The notes beneath the pieces are model-generated. The model searched no databases, was not told the origin of the DNA, and saw only the letters and a list, made by a program, of their open reading frames with translations. From Anolis carolinensis (Eukaryota), in NCBI RefSeq assembly GCF_035594765.1, contig NC_085842.1, positions 40,834,782-40,898,781 on the forward strand: 64,000 nucleotides of DNA, given 5' to 3'. Position numbers and translations under genes: made by a program. Below are positions 22,689 to 32,600 of this stretch, piece after piece (within the stretch, counting starts at the first letter, position 1; each line of letters starts with the position of its first letter).

Positions 22689-23158
22689 ACCTAGGTTATG
22701 CAGAGATCACACCTGATCATACTTTTGTCTAAGGTAACAGCCAATTTCAGTGATAGGTAGACAATGTTGTAGACAATGTTGTAGAGTTTCTTGTAAATAT
22801 GTCCAAGAGCACCTAACAACTGGATGTATTCATGAATTGACCACAATTTGTGCTGAGAGCTTTTAATATGTTTTAGATTTCTGCAGAAAGTATGGATATT
22901 CTCCTAATGTTAACATGAACAGTGATTCTCTTTTTACAGCATATTGGTACTAATGCATCAGAAGTAATTCAAGAACACCAGAAATGTTTGAGGTTTGATT
23001 TAGATTTAACAACTGCTACACATCCATCCAGATCACCACTAAGAAGCCAAAGGGTTGTTGTATGTTTTCTGGGCTGTATGGCCATGTTCCAGAAGTATTC
23101 TCTTATGACGTTTCACCCACATCTATGGCAGGCATCCTCAGAGGTTGTGACCTCACAA

Positions 23159-23199
23159 CCTCTGAGGATGCCTGCCATAGATGTGGGCGAAACGTCAGG
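23159..23199 (+). ncRNA. Minimal type I hammerhead ribozyme motif (Penelope-associated)
   Basis: CCT-CTGAGGA-helix II (GCCTGC..GTGGGC)-GAAA-CG-TC-AGG; predicted cleavage after C23196. Confidence 0.75.
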
Positions 23200-23237
23200 A
23201 GAGAATACTTCTGAAACATGGCCATACAGCCTGGAAA

Positions 23238-24212
23238 TGTGATGACCCATGGGCCTTGTAGTCCTGCTCATGACATTGTGATGCCTGATGAAGAAGAAAA
23301 CTTGGGTTTTTTACCTTCCCAGTCAGAACTGGATTCTTCCCAGACAGATTCTTCCCAGCCAGATCTGGGAACCTTGCACCTGCAAGAGGATTATGTTCCA
23401 GAAGTATGTCAAACAAATACTGAGGCTACATCTCCAGTGTTTTCTCGCCATGAGTTTTGTAAACAACAGAGAGGTTTGGAAGCAGCCTCGCGCAGGAGTG
23501 CGAGAATAATTGCTAAGAATTTGCCAATTAAGCCTGTTTTCCATGAGAATCTTTAAGGAGTCAAACATCTGGTCTCAGAGATTAGCTTTCGTTTCTGGTT
23601 CCCAGAGAACTGCTCTCGGCGGGAAAGTTAGACTCTATATAGGTGTTTTACCCGCGGAGTAACTTTGCGGAGTCAATTCGTCAGCCTCCGGAGCGAGTTG
23701 TGTTTGGACAGCGCGCTCCGTTTCAAGCCTCGTTCCTGCTCAAGCCTTGTCCTTGTTTCCTGCCTTCGCTCCTGCTTCCCAGCCTTTGTTTACCTACGAA
23801 CCTTGCCTTGTTTCCCAGGACTAAACCTTGCCTTGTTCCACGGATTTTACCAAGTTATTCCACGGACCTTGTTCTTGTTCCTCGTTACCTTGTTCCACGA
23901 TTCAAGCCTTGTTTTCAAGTATCAAGTTATCTCCTAGCCTTGCTCAAGTTCATGGACTAAAGGACCTTGTCATCTCCCCTCACTTTGCCTGGCAAAGTGA
24001 GTGTTTCGGTTATTGGATTACAACTTTGGACCTTAATATTTCATATTGGACATTGTTTCTTTGGACTAATTTTGACCTTTCTTGAAAGGTCTGCTTCTGG
24101 ACTAACTTTTACATTTGCTTTTACTAACTTTATATATTTCCTTAATAAAGATATTAGATAGATTCTGGCCTCTGCGTATGGTTATTGGTGCTCTGTAGCC
24201 TGGGTCGTGACA
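23238..24212 (+). repeat. 5' LTR
   Basis: Starts TGTGATGACCC, ends GTCGTGACA; direct repeat of 28693-29667. Confidence 0.98.
23636..23641 (+). promoter_or_regulatory. LTR TATA box (copy at 29091-29096); predicted TSS near 23667
   Basis: TATATA 31 nt upstream of GCGGAGTCAA, the sequence complementary to the PBS. Confidence 0.7.
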
Positions 24213-24214
24213 GT

Positions 24215-24224
24215 TTGACTCCGC
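24215..24224 (+). promoter_or_regulatory. Primer-binding site, self-priming type (not tRNA)
   Basis: TTGACTCCGC, 2 nt after the LTR end, is the exact reverse complement of LTR 23667-23676; no TGG tRNA-CCA complement. Confidence 0.8.
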
Positions 24225-24254
24225 CACCCTAAGCACCAATTAACCTCGGCCAGA

Positions 24255-25247
24255 ATGTCTACCGGAGTCGTACCTGGGCCGAGCGGCCAGCCGATTACCT
24301 ACACCATCGACAAGGATGAGGTGGACCGAATCCGTGATAAGCTCAATGCACAGGATGGAGAAATAAAGGGTTTGAAGGAACGCGGAATCCGTCTTCCGGC
24401 CATGGCGTTGCCAACCAAGTTTACTGGAGAAGCTTCTAAGGTTCATGTTTTCCGTCGCCAATGCCAAGCTTATCTAGAGGCCCGTGATGCCGAGTTTCCC
24501 CAGGAAGACATCAAGGTGGCGTGGATTTACAGTCTCCTAGACGGGCCAGCGGCTAACTGGGCGACGGCTCTGTTCGACCAAGCCTCCCCACATCTAAGGT
24601 CAGCGCAACATTTCTTGGACCACCTTAAGGCGACCTGGGGAATCGAGGACAATTTGGAGGCAGCCGGGCACAAACTCCGCCGCCTCTTCCAAGGAGACAG
24701 ACCCATGTCTCAGTACATAGCCGAGTTCCGAGTGCTGGCCCACAACACCGGCTGGAACGATGTTGCCCTCAGAGGACAATTTCGGGAGGGTCTCAACATT
24801 GAAATGCTGGAGGAAATCTCCAAGGTGGATCCTCCCCAAACGCTGGAAGCACTCATCGATCAATGTTTACGGGCTGAAGTCATGATTGCCAACAGGAAGC
24901 AGTGGGTACGAGGCCAGAGCGGTAGAGCTGGGGCAAAACCCCCCGCTCCCGCCAGCGTTCAGCCGCGTCCAGTGTGGAGACCCCCACCACCATCCCCATA
25001 CCCCAGAGGGAGCGAGGAGGTGCCGATGCAGTTGGGCAATGTGCGTCCCAGATTAGATGCCGCCGAGAAGGCCCGCCGCCAACGCCTAAATCTCTGTTGG
25101 TATTGCGGGAATGGGGGCCACTTCGCCAGAGAGTGCCCAGCCAAAGGGAAGCCCGCCGCCCGTCTTGCGGCGGCGTCCTCCACGGAGACGAAGACGTCTG
25201 AGGCGGCTGGCACACAGCCGGCGGGGGAAGCCAACGACCGGGCGTAG
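24255..25247 (+). CDS. gag: Gag (330 aa; capsid plus CCHC zinc knuckle)
   Basis: PTKFTGE capsid-start motif, QGDRPMSQYIAEF MHR-like motif, EVPMQLG motif and CWYCGNGGHFAREC knuckle. Confidence 0.95.
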   Translation: MSTGVVPGPSGQPITYTIDKDEVDRIRDKLNAQDGEIKGLKERGIRLPAMALPTKFTGEASKVHVFRRQCQAYLEARDAEFPQEDIKVAWIYSLLDGPAANWATALFDQASPHLRSAQHFLDHLKATWGIEDNLEAAGHKLRRLFQGDRPMSQYIAEFRVLAHNTGWNDVALRGQFREGLNIEMLEEISKVDPPQTLEALIDQCLRAEVMIANRKQWVRGQSGRAGAKPPAPASVQPRPVWRPPPPSPYPRGSEEVPMQLGNVRPRLDAAEKARRQRLNLCWYCGNGGHFARECPAKGKPAARLAAASSTETKTSEAAGTQPAGEANDRA

Positions 25248-28200
25248 AGAGGCTCGCCAACCCGGTCAAGAAACCCATTCAAGAGCCGCCAACCGGGGTC
25301 CTGTTCCTTCTAGTGGTCACCTTATGGTCAGCAAAAAAGGGACCCGTCATGATCCACGCCATGATAGACTCAGGAGCTACCAACAATTTCATTGATAGAG
25401 AGTATGCCGACTCTCTGGGATTACAATATCATGACTTCAAGAATGCCCGTGTGGTGCAAGCCATCGATGGCCGCCCTCTCAAGACGGGCCCCGTAAGCCA
25501 GTGGTCGGAACCCACCAGGATGTGGATAAGGGAACATATGGAAGAGATTTCCTTCTTTGTTACTGAGGTTCCCCATTTCCCTGTGATTTTGGGGATTCCA
25601 TGGCTGACACTTCACGACCCAAGCATCTCCTGGTCCAACAGAGAACTGCAGTTTGCTTCAAAGTACTGCCAAAACCATTGCCTCGTAGCCAAGGTCTGCC
25701 ATGCCACAGACACCGAGCCCATTATCACCTTGCCAAAGAAGTACTCCGAGTATTGGGATGTATTCAATGAAAAAGAAGCCGAAAAATTACCCCCACATAG
25801 ACCTTATGACTGTGCCATTGACTTGGTGGAGGGGGCCCCGATCCCGCGAGGGCATCTCTACTCCCTGACTGAACCAGAGCAAGAAGCTCTCAGGGAATTC
25901 ATAGAGACAAACCTTCGCAAGGGATTCATCAGACCCTCTCAATCCCCAGCCGCCTCCCCAGTAATGTTTGTGAAGAAGAAGTCAGGGGAATTACGCTTGG
26001 TGGTGGACTACAGAGCATTGAATAATATCACCAAGCGGAACAGCTATCCCCTGCCCTTAATCTCGGATCTACTAGACCGACTTCGAGGAGCCAAGGTTTA
26101 CACCAAGCTGGATCTTCGGGGAGCTTACAACTTAGTTCGCATCAGAGAAGGGGACGAGTGGAAGACCGCCTTCCAGACTAAATTCGGATTATTCGAGTCC
26201 CGAGTTATGAATTATGGATTATGCGGAGCTCCCGCAACGTTCCAGCATTTTGTCAATGACATTTTCCAGGACTATCTAGATAGGTTCTTGATAATCTACC
26301 TGGACGATTTTTTGGTGTTTTCTAGATCACAATCAGAACATGAGAACCACGTCAAAATGGTGTTGCAACGATTGCGGGATCATGGACTTTATGCCAAGCT
26401 AGAAAAATGCGCTTTTGATCTACAAGAGGTAGATTTCCTTGGATACCGTATCTCGCCTCTAGGGCTCTCCATGGATCCAGCCAAGGTTTCAGCAGTATTG
26501 GAATGGCGGGCGCCAACTAACAAGAAGGAGGTGCAGCGATTCTTGGGGTTCGCGAACTATTACCGTAAGTTCATTCCAGATTTTGCCCGCTGGTCTGACC
26601 CAATCACTAGCTGCATCCGTGGAAAACAGCCCTTCCGCTGGACTGATCAAGCAGAGAAAGGGTTCCAGCAACTAAAGAAATTATTCACATCCCAGCCAAT
26701 CCTTCAGCATCCAGATCCTGAAACCCTTTTTGTGGTGCAAGCGGACGCCTCTGATGTGGCAATTGGGGCTGTGCTCCTACAACCGGTGGGAGATCACCTT
26801 CATCCTTGTGCCTATTATTCTCGTCAACTAACCGCACCAGAGAGGAACTATACCATTTGGGAAAAAGAACTATTAGCCATAAAGGCAGCTTTTGAAACTT
26901 GGAGACATTGGCTAGAAGGGGCCAAATTTCCCATTGAAGTCCACACTGATCATCGGAATCTAGAACATCTAAGAACTGCCCGCAAGCTAAATCAGAGGCA
27001 GCAACGTTGGGCTTTATTCTTTGAACGTTTCAACTTCCAGATTCATTATGTGACCCCAGCCCAAACCAAGCAAGCAGATGCCCTGTCACGTAAACCGGAA
27101 TACGCTGCAGGACGCAAGGAGACCTTTGAATCCCAACTATTACAACCCGAGAACTTTGCCACGCTCACAGTGGGGAACACCAAATCCACTCCCATTGATT
27201 CAACTCCCTCTACTCCAGGGCCCATCTGTGCTCAAGAAATCAGGGCTAGTCAACAAGCAGATGCCTGGGCGCAGGACCAACTTCGTCAAGGCCTGCATTT
27301 TCCCTTTTCGCTTAAAGATGGACTGCTTTGCTATAGAAATCATGTTTATATCCCACCCGGACCGGGCAGGGAAAAAGCACTTCGTCTGTGTCATGACTGC
27401 AAACCAGCAGGGCATTTCGGACTATTTAAAACCATGCATTTGATCCTAAGAGATTTCTGGTGGCCCAAGATCCGCAAGGATGTGGAAAAATATGTTAACA
27501 CCTGCCCAGTATGCCAGCGCTCCAAGATAAGAAGGGAGAAGCCCTCAGGGCTTCTACACCCCCTTCCTAACCCATCTCGCCCATGGGAAATAATTTCTGC
27601 GGATTTTATCACTGACTTACCACCTTCCTGTGGATTCACCACGATCCTAGTGGTGGTGGACCTTTTCACCAAGTTAGCCCATTTCATTCCCTGTGAAGGT
27701 CTTCCCACGGCCCAAGAGACTGCAGATTTATTCCTCCAACATGTTTTCAGACTACATGGATTGCCCAAGAGTTTGGTCACAGACCGTGGATCCCAATTCA
27801 CCTCTCGTTTCTGGAAGGCACTACAAAAACTATTGGGCATAGACTCTCGTTTATCTTCAGCTCATCATCCCCAAACGGATGGGCAAACGGAGCGCACCAA
27901 TGCCACTTTGGAACAGTACCTTCGCTGTTATGTAAACTACCAACAGGACAATTGGGCTTCTCTGTTACCACTGTCGGAATTTGCCTACAACAATGGAGTC
28001 CAGGCTTCTACAAAAGAAACGCCGTTCTTTGCAAACTACGGCTTCCATCCACGTTTCTTTCCCCCTGTCATTGAAACTTCAGAAGTTCCCGCAGCAGAAG
28101 ATTGGCTGCAGGAACTCACAGCGGTGCAACAACTTTTGCTCCAGCAACTGGAACAAGCCAAGGAGGACTATAAACGTCACGCGGACAAACATCGCCAGCC

Positions 28201-29011
28201 GGGCCCCGAAATCAAGGTAGGAGATCGGGTTTTTCTGTCCACTCGCTTTTTGCCCTCCCATCGCCCTTGCCGGAAGTTAGATGCCCGTTTCATTGGCCCC
28301 TATCCAGTGGTGGCGCAACTTAACCCCGTGACTTTCAAACTCCAACTTCCGCGCTCAATGCGCATTCACCCAGTGTTTCACCGCTCCCTGCTCCTTCCGG
28401 CGGATGGTGTGCGGCCAGATGTAGACCGGCCGGCCCCCGTCCCTATTTTGGTGGATGGGGAGGACGAGTTCGAGGTTCAGGACATTTTGGATTCTCGCTT
28501 TCACCGCCGCCGCCTGCAATATCTCATTGACTGGGTGGGTTTTGGCCCTGAGGAACGCTCTTGGGAAGACGCTTCCACAGTTCACGCTCCTGATCTAACC
28601 CGTCGCTTCCATCAGACCTATCCCGCCAAGCCACGACCTCGCGCCTCGGGGAGAGAGTCCCAGTTTGGGAGGGGGCTTGAGGAGGGGGATAGTGTGATGA
28701 CCCATGGGCCTTGTAGTCCTGCTCATGACATTGTGATGCCTGATGAAGAAGAAAACTTGGGTTTTTTACCTTCCCAGTCAGAACTGGATTCTTCCCAGAC
28801 AGATTCTTCCCAGCCAGATCTGGGAACCTTGCACCTGCAAGAGGATTATGTTCCAGAAGTATGTCAAACAAATACTGAGGCTACATCTCCAGTGTTTTCT
28901 CGCCATGAGTTTTGTAAACAACAGAGAGGTTTGGAAGCAGCCTCGCGCAGGAGTGCGAGAATAATTGCTAAGAATTTGCCAATTAAGCCTGTTTTCCATG
29001 AGAATCTTTAA
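25202..29011 (+). CDS. pol: Pol (protease, RT, RNase H, integrase, GPY/F, chromodomain, U3-encoded tail), in the -1 frame relative to gag
   Basis: Frame open from 25202 (after TGA 25199-25201) to TAA 29009-29011. DSG at 25367, YLDD at 26297, DASD RNase H motif, HHCC plus D-D-E integrase, RFIGPY, and chromodomain FEVQDIL..DWVGFG..SWE at about 28469-28624. Confidence 0.95.
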   Translation, partial: GGWHTAGGGSQRPGVERLANPVKKPIQEPPTGVLFLLVVTLWSAKKGPVMIHAMIDSGATNNFIDREYADSLGLQYHDFKNARVVQAIDGRPLKTGPVSQWSEPTRMWIREHMEEISFFVTEVPHFPVILGIPWLTLHDPSISWSNRELQFASKYCQNHCLVAKVCHATDTEPIITLPKKYSEYWDVFNEKEAEKLPPHRPYDCAIDLVEGAPIPRGHLYSLTEPEQEALREFIETNLRKGFIRPSQSPAASPVMFVKKKSGELRLVVDYRALNNITKRNSYPLPLISDLLDRLRGAKVYTKLDLRGAYNLVRIREGDEWKTAFQTKFGLFESRVMNYGLCGAPATFQHFVNDIFQDYLDRFLIIYLDDFLVFSRSQSEHENHVKMVLQRLRDHGLYAKLEKCAFDLQEVDFLGYRISPLGLSMDPAKVSAVLEWRAPTNKKEVQRFLGFANYYRKFIPDFARWSDPITSCIRGKQPFRWTDQAEKGFQQLKKLFTSQPILQHPDPETLFVVQADASDVAIGAVLLQPVGDHLHPCAYYSRQLTAPERNYTIWEKELLAIKAAFETWRHWLEGAKFPIEVHTDHRNLEHLRTARKLNQRQQRWALFFERFNFQIHYVTPAQTKQADALSRKPEYAAGRKETFESQLLQPENFATLTVGNTKSTPIDSTPSTPGPICAQEIRASQQADAWAQDQLRQGLHFPFSLKDGLLCYRNHVYIPPGPGREKALRLCHDCKPAGHFGLFKTMHLILRDFWWPKIRKDVEKYVNTCPVCQRSKIRREKPSGLLHPLPNPSRPWEIISADFITDLPPSCGFTTILVVVDLFTKLAHFIPCEGLPTAQETADLFLQHVFRLHGLPKSLVTDRGSQFTSRFWKALQKLLGIDSRLSSAHHPQTDGQTERTNATLEQYLRCYVNYQQDNWASLLPLSEFAYNNGVQASTKETPFFANYGFHPRFFPPVIETSEVPAAEDWLQELTAVQQLLLQQLEQAKEDYKRHADKHRQPGPEIKVGDRVFLSTRFLPSHRPCRKLDARFIGPYPVVAQLNPVTFKLQLPRSMRIHPVFHRSLLLPADGVRPDVDRPAPVPILVDGEDEFEVQDILDSRFHRRRLQYLIDWVGFGPEERSWEDASTVHAPDLTRRFHQTYPAKPRPRASGRESQFGRGLEEGDSVMTHGPCSPAHDIVMPDEEENLGFLPSQSELDSSQTDSSQPDLGTLHLQEDYVPEVCQTNTEATSPVFSRHEFCKQQRGLEAASRRSARIIAKNLPIKPVFHENL
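28679..28692 (+). promoter_or_regulatory. Polypurine tract
   Basis: GAGGAGGGGGATAG directly before the 3' LTR TG. Confidence 0.9.
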
Positions 29012-29667
29012 GGAGTCAAACATCTGGTCTCAGAGATTAGCTTTCGTTTCTGGTTCCCAGAGAACTGCTCTCGGCGGGAAAGTTAGACTCTATATAGGTG
29101 TTTTACCCGCGGAGTAACTTTGCGGAGTCAATTCGTCAGCCTCCGGAGCGAGTTGTGTTTGGACAGCGCGCTCCGTTTCAAGCCTCGTTCCTGCTCAAGC
29201 CTTGTCCTTGTTTCCTGCCTTCGCTCCTGCTTCCCAGCCTTTGTTTACCTACGAACCTTGCCTTGTTTCCCAGGACTAAACCTTGCCTTGTTCCACGGAT
29301 TTTACCAAGTTATTCCACGGACCTTGTTCTTGTTCCTCGTTACCTTGTTCCACGATTCAAGCCTTGTTTTCAAGTATCAAGTTATTTCCTAGCCTTGCTC
29401 AAGTTCATGGACTAAAGGACCTTGTCATCTCCCCTCACTTTGCCTGGCAAAGTGAGTGTTTCGGTTATTGGATTACAACTTTGGACCTTAATATTTCATA
29501 TTGGACATTGTTTCTTTGGACTAATTTTGACCTTTCTTGAAAGGTCTGCTTCTGGACTAACTTTTACATTTGCTTTTACTAACTTTATATATTTCCTTAA
29601 TAAAGATATTAGATAGATTCTGGCCTCTGCGTATGGTTATTGGTGCTCTGTAGCCTGGGTCGTGACA
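28693..29667 (+). repeat. 3' LTR
   Basis: Same sequence as the 5' LTR except C23931/T29386 (the only difference I found by eye). Confidence 0.98.
29599..29604 (+). terminator. LTR polyadenylation signal (copy at 24144-24149)
   Basis: AATAAA about 65 nt before the LTR end, followed by a GT-rich stretch. Confidence 0.65.
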
Positions 29668-32600
29668 GGAAAACATACAACAACCCTGTGATCCCGGCCA
29701 TGAAAGCCTTTGACAACACAAAGAAGCCAAAGTTTGGGCTAAAGAAACACTAGTCTGAAAGGCATCTGTTTCAATGAACCCCATCTAGGAATACATCCAA
29801 ACTTAGGAATGCATCCAAACTTCAATGTCATTGGATCCTGTTCTACGCTTGACGCTGCTAGAGGTCTTACACTCTAAAGAGTTAAACATCCACTATCCAT
29901 TATTCACGAAGCCAGATCCTATTGGTTAAATTACTCATGGATGTACTTATAGATGTCACCTTCCAAAAATGTATTTTTGGAAGTATGTTCAGTTTATATT
30001 TATGCACATGCCTAGCCTTGCTTCATATTCAATGTGTTCCCTTCCTACTTTTTCTCATCCCTTTCTCCCCTGCCTTCTTTTAATAATAAAAAGGAATGCA
30101 TTCAAATATCTGTCTGGAATCTTGGAATGAGCTGTATGTGATAAAGTAGGCTGCAGTACTCCACAGCCAATATCCAAATAAAACACACTGGTCTTTAAAT
30201 GCCATAGTACTCTTCGTTAGGGAAATATTTATTGTGCTCCACAAGGATTTTATCTTATTTCTGACTTTGGGATTCATCACCCAGCAGGTTGGGGAAATGG
30301 ATGACTGTTTTGCCTCAATCTGTAGGCTTCTGTCAAATTCCAGATTTAACTGATAATAATATTTACAATAAAAATATATGCATTTCCCAGCTAGGTATTT
30401 TTGTGTTGGTTGTATACCTCCAAGTCATTTCTGACTTATGGCAGCCCTAAGACAACAAAAGTTATATTTCAAAAACAAGTGTGACATAGAACATTCCACA
30501 AAAATACAGATTTACTCCATGTTCAAAAGTACTGGCATGGCCTTGCATTAGTAGAAGTGCTCATAACCAAACAACTACAGTCTTTGGGGGAAAAAAAAAA
30601 TTAAAATAGAAAAACATGTCATATTCTAAACTGAGAGGGCAATGCAGAGCACACTGTGCTTTAAAAGGCTCTTTGTTATAAGATTAAAGATAGATGAGAT
30701 CTCACTGCATGTTTATTTGCTCTTCTATTTTCTAGTTGATTAAATTGATAGACCTTTTCCATTTTTTTTCTCCCAGGTGAGATCATAATAGTTTTAAAAT
30801 AAGTGCTAAAACCACAATGAGTCCATAATGAGGACAGATATTTGTCATTTATTTATCTATTTAAATTTGATTCTGGGTTTTGACTTGGAATAGGACCCAA
30901 AGTGGTTCATAAAAGGAAGCAATTGAAATCAAAGGAGAACACTGTCAAAAATGGAAATCATCCTACTGAAACATACACACATGAATGAAACAACACATTC
31001 CTCTTACTTATGCATGTCTATTCAGAAATAAGCCTCACTAAATTCAATGAGCCTTACTCTAATATGAGTGGACACAGGATTGCTGCCAATGCTCAGGAAG
31101 AATAGTAAAAATCAAAACTATTTGCATAGGCTGGTGTCAACTCATTCGGAGTTCTAATTTGTAAGCAATATAGAACATTCCTATTTTTACAGCAGGAGAC
31201 TAATTGGATAGTTTGGAGTTCTGGCACAGAAGATATGCATGTAGTCAAGCTTTGCAAAATTTAGATCTTGAGAAAACTCATCTCCACTCCTCAAGCTCTT
31301 TGGAGCCTCCACAGAGTCAAAAAATAACTCCTAAAAGAAAAATGTGAAGAATAGGCACTATATAAACTTGCTAGTTGCTACGTTGTGCAGCCTACTTTAA
31401 AAGCACACCTTTCAGTTTTTTTTCTTATGTCCTGAACAAGACTGAATGTCTCATCTACACTGTAAAAAGTATGCTGATTGACACCATTTTAACTGCCGAG
31501 GCTCAATGCTATATAGTTGGGAGAGGCACTAGCACTCTTTGACAGAGAAGGTTAAATACCTTGTGAAACCATGACTCTCAGGATTGGCAATTAAAGTAGT
31601 GTCAAATTGCATTCATTCTGCAGTATAAATGCACCCTCACTCTACATATCCCCAAAACAGTGTCTCAGGAAAGGCTGGGCCATGTGCCTCTGTGCCAGTG
31701 TTTCTAACTGAAGCTTTGACAGGAAAGTGGAAATCTGTAGCACTTTATGCATGATGCTATATGGCTATGACTCAAAATCAGGTAGGTGAGCCCTGTTTTC
31801 ATCTTCTCTGCCAATTCATATTTCCCTCCCATCAGAGAGAAGTCAGGGGAATAAAACTTCAAATATATTTCTCTTTGGCAGGCTCATGCCATGCGATCAG
31901 ACAGTTCATCTGCACAAAGCCCCAAAGCTATTAATGCTAAATGTTCCACTCCAGGAAGATCAGAATAGCAGAGACAGTTGGTCTTGGAAGTCCTTTCTCC
32001 TCTTTCACAGATTTTGCCAGCTTCAACGTCTCAACCACACGAAGAAAAACATGTGGAGCTAATTTGGATTTTGCAATTTCAAAATTTAAATTTCTTGTAA
32101 GTCTCTTCCATATTACACTATAATAAGTGTTTTGATGCTACTTTAACTACCATGGAATCCTAGGATTCTGCTATGGCTCAGTGCTATGGGAATCACAGGA
32201 GTTGTAGTGTTACAAATGTCTTTAGCCTTCTCTGCCAAAGAGTGCTGTTGCCTCACCAAACAATAAAGCCCAGAATTGTAGGCGATGTCACCATGGTAGT
32301 TGAAGAGGTATCAAAGGACTGCAGTTGCAGAGTATGAATGAGAATAGTTTAATATTAAATAACCTGAAGAAATAGAATAGGAACGCTACTCTTAATCTCT
32401 GAATACAACTATTAAACATTGTTTACAAGACACAGTGGATTTGTTTAGATTTTCCCATGTAGATGGAGACACATTTAAACCTCTATCAAATATTATTTGC
32501 TGTCTATCTACCCAGCACTGGCATATCATATTAGAAAAATATTTTGCTCTGATCTCTTCAGAGTAGTTCATGAGCAAAATAAAACTGAATCAAGCAAGAT

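Follow-up and report, generated by a model that had tools for sequence, protein, structure and literature searches.

The question raised by this locus is which RNA primes minus-strand DNA synthesis of an LTR retrotransposon whose primer-binding site (PBS) has its complement in its own LTR. The window, a stretch of 64,000 nucleotides from Anolis carolinensis (NC_085842.1, positions 40,834,782 to 40,898,781), carries an intact Ty3/Gypsy chromovirus at 23238–29667 on the forward strand. Sequence comparisons indicate that this recently amplified element very probably uses its own RNA's first 10 bases as primer in place of a tRNA, as Tf1 does. Self-priming is the favoured reading because the LTR complement of the PBS lies 31 nt behind a TATA box, no tRNA fits the PBS, the pairing covaries over ten PBS versions, and a helix flanking the PBS covaries as well.

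Anatomy of the element and its family

The features of the locus, all on the forward (+) strand, are the following.

23233–23237, +: left target-site duplication GGAAA; the same 5 nt stand at 29668–29672
23238–24212, +: 5′ LTR, 975 nt, TG...CA, from LTR comparison
23557–23566, +: second 10-nt complement to the PBS region, in U3; youngest subfamily only, likely incidental
23636–23641, +: TATA-like box TATATA; an A/T-rich box at 28–31 nt is present in all 64 matching elements
23667–23676, +: predicted self-primer, equal to the predicted first 10 nt of the RNA (R start), with a pyrimidine-purine step at its start, from a deduced start site
24144–24149, +: AATAAA, a polyadenylation signal 69 nt ahead of the LTR end; implied R of about 500 nt
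24163–24192 (24163–24170 and 24180–24192), +: U5 arms of the PBS-flanking helix, from folding and covariation
24215–24224, +: PBS without TGG, 2 nt past the LTR end, from sequence and tRNA comparison
24232–24255 (24232–24245 and 24248–24255), +: arms of the PBS-flanking helix in the leader, which stop at the gag start codon
24255–25247, +: gag, 330 aa, capsid and CCHC zinc knuckle, from domain search
25202–29011, +: pol in the −1 frame, with protease, reverse transcriptase (RT), RNase H, integrase, SH3, chromodomain and a tail coded by the 3′ LTR
28679–28689, +: polypurine tract
28693–29667, +: 3′ LTR, 975 nt, of which the first 319 nt double as coding sequence for the integrase tail
29668–29672, +: right target-site duplication GGAAA, copy of the left 5 nt

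The domain order between the LTRs is protease, RT, RNase H and integrase, as in Ty3/Gypsy, and the catalytic motifs of pol (YLDD of RT, the RNase H motifs and the integrase motifs) are all present. The integrase C-terminus carries a chromodomain (PF00385, E value of 1.4e-8, above the cut-off). As read from the sequence frames alone, gag and pol overlap in a −1 relation. No canonical slippery heptamer is seen by eye in the overlap (25202–25266), where a G-rich run precedes a 7-bp stem, and the hairpin 3′ of the overlap folds no better than shuffles (z of −0.66).

Across the region searched, identity is 100% to a UniRef protein labelled Anolis carolinensis, and the homologues among the matches listed belong to squamate, amphibian, fish, fungal and algal elements. 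A genome search with the RT finds at least 150 places, and all 150 scored ones are 100% identical; by eye, 136 of the 150 listed RT matches lie within open frames of at least 1256 aa. The LTR pair in the window has 1 difference in 975 nt (23931/29386), and LTR identity within the 20 own-family copies examined is 98.0–100%, with 7 pairs identical. The family is very young. Of the suggestion in the initial annotation that the element is possibly active, the part on recent activity is backed by copy identity; mobility today is likely. One own-family copy (L066) has an identical RT and a deletion spanning the 5′ LTR end, the PBS and the gag start.

The PBS, its LTR complement and covariation

The PBS, TTGACTCCGC (24215–24224), is the exact reverse complement of GCGGAGTCAA (23667–23676), which starts 31 nt after the start of TATATA at 23636. 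The 5′ LTR closes with CA at 24212; next come the 2-nt spacer GT and the PBS, so that the 3′ end of the primer would lie 2 nt from the LTR end. These three relations, from which the initial annotation had proposed self-priming, are borne out by direct sequence comparison. The pairing between the PBS and the LTR is limited to 10 nt. A complement of at least 10 nt arises anywhere in a 975-nt LTR in 83 of 20000 second-order Markov simulations, and 9 of 3000 random internal windows substituted for the PBS have an LTR complement of this length, which together put the chance of an exact 10-nt complement at about 0.3–0.4%. Contigs from four sequencing runs presumed to be RNA gave no called start or end site. 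An assembled contig starting exactly at 23667 was discarded as start-site evidence, since the preceding base is T or C among copies, which is enough to break a contig; depth steps were likewise set aside.

The hallmark of tRNA-primed Ty3/Gypsy elements, such as Ty3 and plant chromoviruses, is a PBS that starts with TGG and pairs with a tRNA 3′ end, and it is absent here: TGG occurs in the first 8 nt of the PBS in 0 of 10 versions. The tRNA set was built from 40 loci around Rfam tRNA matches, in which ARAGORN predicts 86 genes, 70 of them distinct, covering 32 anticodons and 18 amino acids, with Glu, Tyr and Sec missing. Against these 70 distinct anole tRNAs, 3′-end matches of the PBS reach at most 2 nt, and internal matches reach 6 nt for the PBS of the window and at most 8 nt for any version. 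Since no tRNA-primed Gypsy family turned up among the loci retrieved as a natural negative control, cross-family matches and internal windows served in its place.

Relatives were collected as 80 loci retrieved with protein queries of varying distance, which makes 81 with the window, and in 67 of them the 5′ LTR end can be resolved. The other 14 were left out: L041 and L043, in which the RT was not found, L042, which is cut off, L066, in which the deletion covers the LTR end and the PBS, and L001, L007, L011, L018, L029, L030, L031, L035, L044 and L046, in which the 5′ LTR is missing or unresolved. LTR ends were set by hand at 9 loci, and LTR starts are approximate at 6. Linker protein queries from lizards and snakes led to places of a clade-B family or to one uniform family with the same ORF length, none of which is in the sample.

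A PBS complement of 10–13 nt is present in the element's own LTR, 28–31 nt behind a TATA-like box defined by a permissive pattern picked after data inspection, in 64 of the 67 elements, and in these the PBS begins 1–3 nt past the LTR end. RT identity of the 67 ranges from 45 to 100%. The PBS exists in 10 distinct versions, spread across the two main branches into which an RT tree of 31 anole copies divides, and these versions are kin by descent and stand for fewer than ten independent events. The match to the own LTR is 10–12 nt in 10 of 10 representatives, and none of the 90 cross-family matches exceeds 8 nt. PBS changes involve one or two bases within clades and give wholly different sequences between clades. 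Two-sided changes within clades, namely the pair TTGACTCCGC/TTGTCTCCGC, the pair TTGCCACACGC/TTGCCCAACGC and the trio AAGTCGAGAAT/AAGTCAAGAAT/AAGTCAGGAAT, are each mirrored in the LTR. The paired segment starts at a pyrimidine-purine step in 62 of the 64 (background of 0.22), in agreement with the expectation for a Pol II start, and in the two exceptions the pairing extends 1–2 nt further upstream.

In the three remaining elements (L003, L004 and L063), a G-to-A change in the PBS goes unmatched in the LTR and shortens the complement to 8 nt; the changed base belongs to a CpG, which would be consistent with post-insertion decay. L007 carries yet another PBS variant; neither a complement to it nor an LTR pair was found there. 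In three clade-F elements (L051, L053 and L054), a single ORF of 1539–1646 codons spans gag and pol; they keep the self-priming layout, and no chromodomain match was obtained for them.

Comparison of the PBS with Anolis tRNAs and a search for covariation between the R start and the PBS had both been put forward in the initial annotation as checks. Both have now been run: no 3′ end or fragment of the 70 tRNAs fits the PBS, and the covariation holds in 64 of 67 elements and over 10 versions, lending support to the self-priming reading. The title of a Tf1 paper reportedly suggests that the cDNA retains its primer, which is then copied when the plus strand is made. If so, a change at the RNA start could be templated into the PBS, making covariation easy while still implying self-priming.

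Predicted priming mechanism and its alternatives

Transcription would start at G23667, and the first 10 nt of the RNA would fold back across a 546-nt R–U5 loop onto the PBS. By analogy with Tf1, from which this step is borrowed, a cut behind base 10 by the element's own RNase H would leave a free 3′ OH, from which RT would then copy the 2-nt spacer and U5–R. The loop between the primer and the PBS, 546 nt here, is 450–1025 nt in clades A–C and about 100 nt in clades D–G.

U5 (24163–24192) pairs with the leader behind the PBS (24232–24255) in clade A. This flanking helix has a dG of −28 to −36 kcal/mol, and 0 of 100 shuffles are as stable in each of the five clade-A representatives (5/5). Its local fold has a z of −4.2, and in 30 distinct segments 588 of 630 cells are paired and 4 of 21 pairs show a two-sided change. 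Together with the primer duplex, the U5–leader helix is predicted to form a pseudoknot. The 5′-flank duplex of the Tf1 pretzel is no better than shuffles in clade A (31–80 of 100). The pretzel structure is partly supported, in that sequence data argue for its central and 3′-flank duplexes in clade A. In clades B and D–G, 16–84 of 100 shuffles are as good for the 3′-flank duplex; the figure is 2 of 100 in clade C, but there the partner lies far from U5. Clade B has a small hairpin adjoining the PBS, with a variable loop. An unconstrained fold of the 594-nt leader, by a program that draws no pseudoknots, has a z of −0.4 and places the primer and the PBS in separate local hairpins, and an Rfam search of 23200–25400 found nothing.

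The same pairing might be used in trans, with the 5′ end of a second packaged RNA or a short R fragment annealing to the PBS. The length of the loop to be closed in cis (546 nt here and 450–1025 nt in clades A–C) and the separation of the two ends in the lowest-energy fold would be in keeping with a trans primer. However, clades D–G combine short loops with the same layout, and Tf1 is described, in published work, as folding its own 5′ UTR into a three-duplex structure, and we consider priming in trans very unlikely. The complementarity could otherwise be a structural element for packaging, dimerisation or translation control, with priming by other means such as a tRNA fragment. The leader is structured, the flanking helix runs up to the gag start codon, and priming here is predicted from sequence alone, all of which would suit such a role. 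Against it, the duplex always begins at the predicted +1 and always ends 1–3 nt from the CA of the LTR, where minus-strand synthesis must start, and ten PBS versions would need ten host primers, none of the versions fitting a tRNA beyond 8 nt; a purely structural role is highly improbable.

A different primer would be provided by a second 10-nt complement, GGAGTCAAAC (23557–23566), absent from the initial annotation, which lies in U3 and pairs with 24213–24222. It would have to be supplied through an upstream start site or the 3′ region of the RNA. This complement is also 10 nt long, is flush with the LTR end and occurs in 17 of 20 own-family copies, but none of the 16 older clade-A copies and none of the 31 copies from other clades has it, three young copies whose RT is identical carry a broken version, and no TATA-like box stands at the required distance. 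Since it is confined to the youngest subfamily and lacks a properly spaced TATA-like box, it is no rival as a conserved primer; from its distribution it is likely a recent coincidence and not a conserved partner, and priming from it is scarcely conceivable.

Ten covarying primer versions in one genome constitute a strong comparative test of vertebrate self-priming, and an exact start site is predicted for ten element types. With at least 150 copies having identical RT, start sites and primer-linked cDNA should be readable from ordinary anole tissue. Defences by tRNA fragments aim at the PBS of mammalian endogenous retroviruses, and such defences would not apply to self-priming anole elements.

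Known systems, the integrase tail in U3 and the genomic setting

Self-priming is described in the literature as widely shared within the Tf1/sushi group, which has it in fungi, vertebrates and non-seed plants (bioRxiv 10.1101/2022.12.06.519325), and as common to the group from yeast to vertebrates (PMC6317226, PMC4600332). There, Tf1 is said to require three duplexes, with its own 5′ UTR folded (bioRxiv 10.1101/2022.12.06.519325), and in Tf1/Tf2 an RNase H cut releases the primer (PMC5341516). As far as the compared parts of these papers go, self-priming is experimentally shown in yeast and the vertebrate case is proposed from prediction. The anole case is a known mechanism and is less surprising than the initial annotation held, since self-priming is already described group-wide. 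The literature search, which lay outside subscription journals, Repbase and GyDB, where a prior notice is possible, turned up no account of self-priming from Anolis or any other amniote. The anole is listed among genomes with still-active metaviruses in one paper (PMC11011659).

Like Tf1/Tf2 of Schizosaccharomyces pombe, Tj1, Tosmo1–3 and Tcry1, as described in the portions compared, the anole element has a chromodomain integrase, a 5-bp target duplication, a PBS complementary to the predicted RNA 5′ end and a U5 duplex flanking the PBS (bioRxiv 10.1101/2022.12.06.519325, PMC4600332, PMC5341516). Unlike the Tf1 group as described there, it combines a CCHC Gag with a −1-frame pol, where those elements have one ORF or an in-frame stop; a CCHC Gag and a −1 gag–pol junction are reported as usual outside fission yeasts (bioRxiv 10.1101/2022.12.06.519325). 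The anole element further differs from Tf1 in that its R–U5 is 546 nt, a 5′-flank duplex is not evident and the integrase runs on into U3. The anole primer is 10 nt, whereas that of Tf1 is 11 nt.

A chromovirus organization, a CCHC Gag, a −1 gag–pol overlap and predicted self-priming are shared with vertebrate sushi elements (sushi-ichi) as these are described in the parts compared, and the best match of the anole Gag among solved structures is the sushi-derived PEG10. Butler et al. (2001) is reportedly the source for predicted self-priming of vertebrate Tf1/sushi elements such as sushi-ichi. Unlike the earlier vertebrate sushi cases, the host here is a squamate, and covariation over ten versions in one genome has been computed. 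Judged by its sequence, the anole element would work like Tf1 and has every sequence-testable feature of the Tf1/sushi group, a grouping made by features, the RT tree being one of anole copies only.

The pol frame crosses the polypurine tract into U3 of the 3′ LTR for about 105 codons (28693–29011). A U3-coded tail of 92–105 codons is present in 20 of 20 own-family copies. The frame could be located in 13 older clade-A copies, and 9 of these have a tail of 87–91 codons. In clades B and C, 10 of 12 copies encode an acidic tail of 138–143 codons in U3, and in clades D–F pol stops before the LTR in 9 of 9. In nine older clade-A copies, the pN/pS of the tail, from pairwise and hence non-independent counts, is 0.35 in the coding frame and 1.55 and 1.21 in the other two, with 0.11 for RT. 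By these ratios, the U3-coded integrase tail appears to be under purifying selection. No chromodomain was detected in the representatives of clades B, C and F, and the match is weak in clade E. RRSxRI is the closing motif of the clade-A tail; in a Podarcis protein, a similar tail terminates in RRSARL. A motif of this type resembles a nucleosome-binding motif.

In plant CRM group A, too, part of the integrase is coded in the 3′ LTR (PMC3059260). Unlike anole clade A, CRM elements are tRNA-Met primed according to that paper, and their LTR-coded CR motif replaces the chromodomain, whereas anole clade A keeps the chromodomain and adds the tail, a comparison made by description (PMC3059260). A broader scenario, unlikely as a whole, would be that these elements form a currently mobile amniote lineage near the source of PEG10/RTL1, self-priming by a reduced two-duplex structure that closes a 500–1000 nt loop, and that part of integration targeting has moved into the LTR. 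The U3-coded tail with its conserved RRSARI-type motif, also present in a wall-lizard relative, would then dock on nucleosomes and might replace the chromodomain in sister families, in parallel to plant centromeric retrotransposons.

The host site of the element (23040–23237, 29668–29720) is itself another repeat, presumably a Penelope/Neptune pLTR, with a near-perfect inverted repeat at 23094–23209, a hammerhead-like core seen by eye and a related copy at about 40950. An Rfam search with the inverted repeat gave only sub-threshold miRNA-like matches. Elsewhere in the genome, RT or linker matches are regularly spaced by about 5450 or 5200 nt (G000:C1:114248765-114260151, C1:342385808-342391742 and C4:80506532-80522456), and the spacing suggests tandem element arrays with common LTRs. 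Clade-A LTR sequence occurs in or adjoining the 5′ part of elements from clades B and D (L035:1798 and L046:2430, in element orientation), suggesting nested insertion.
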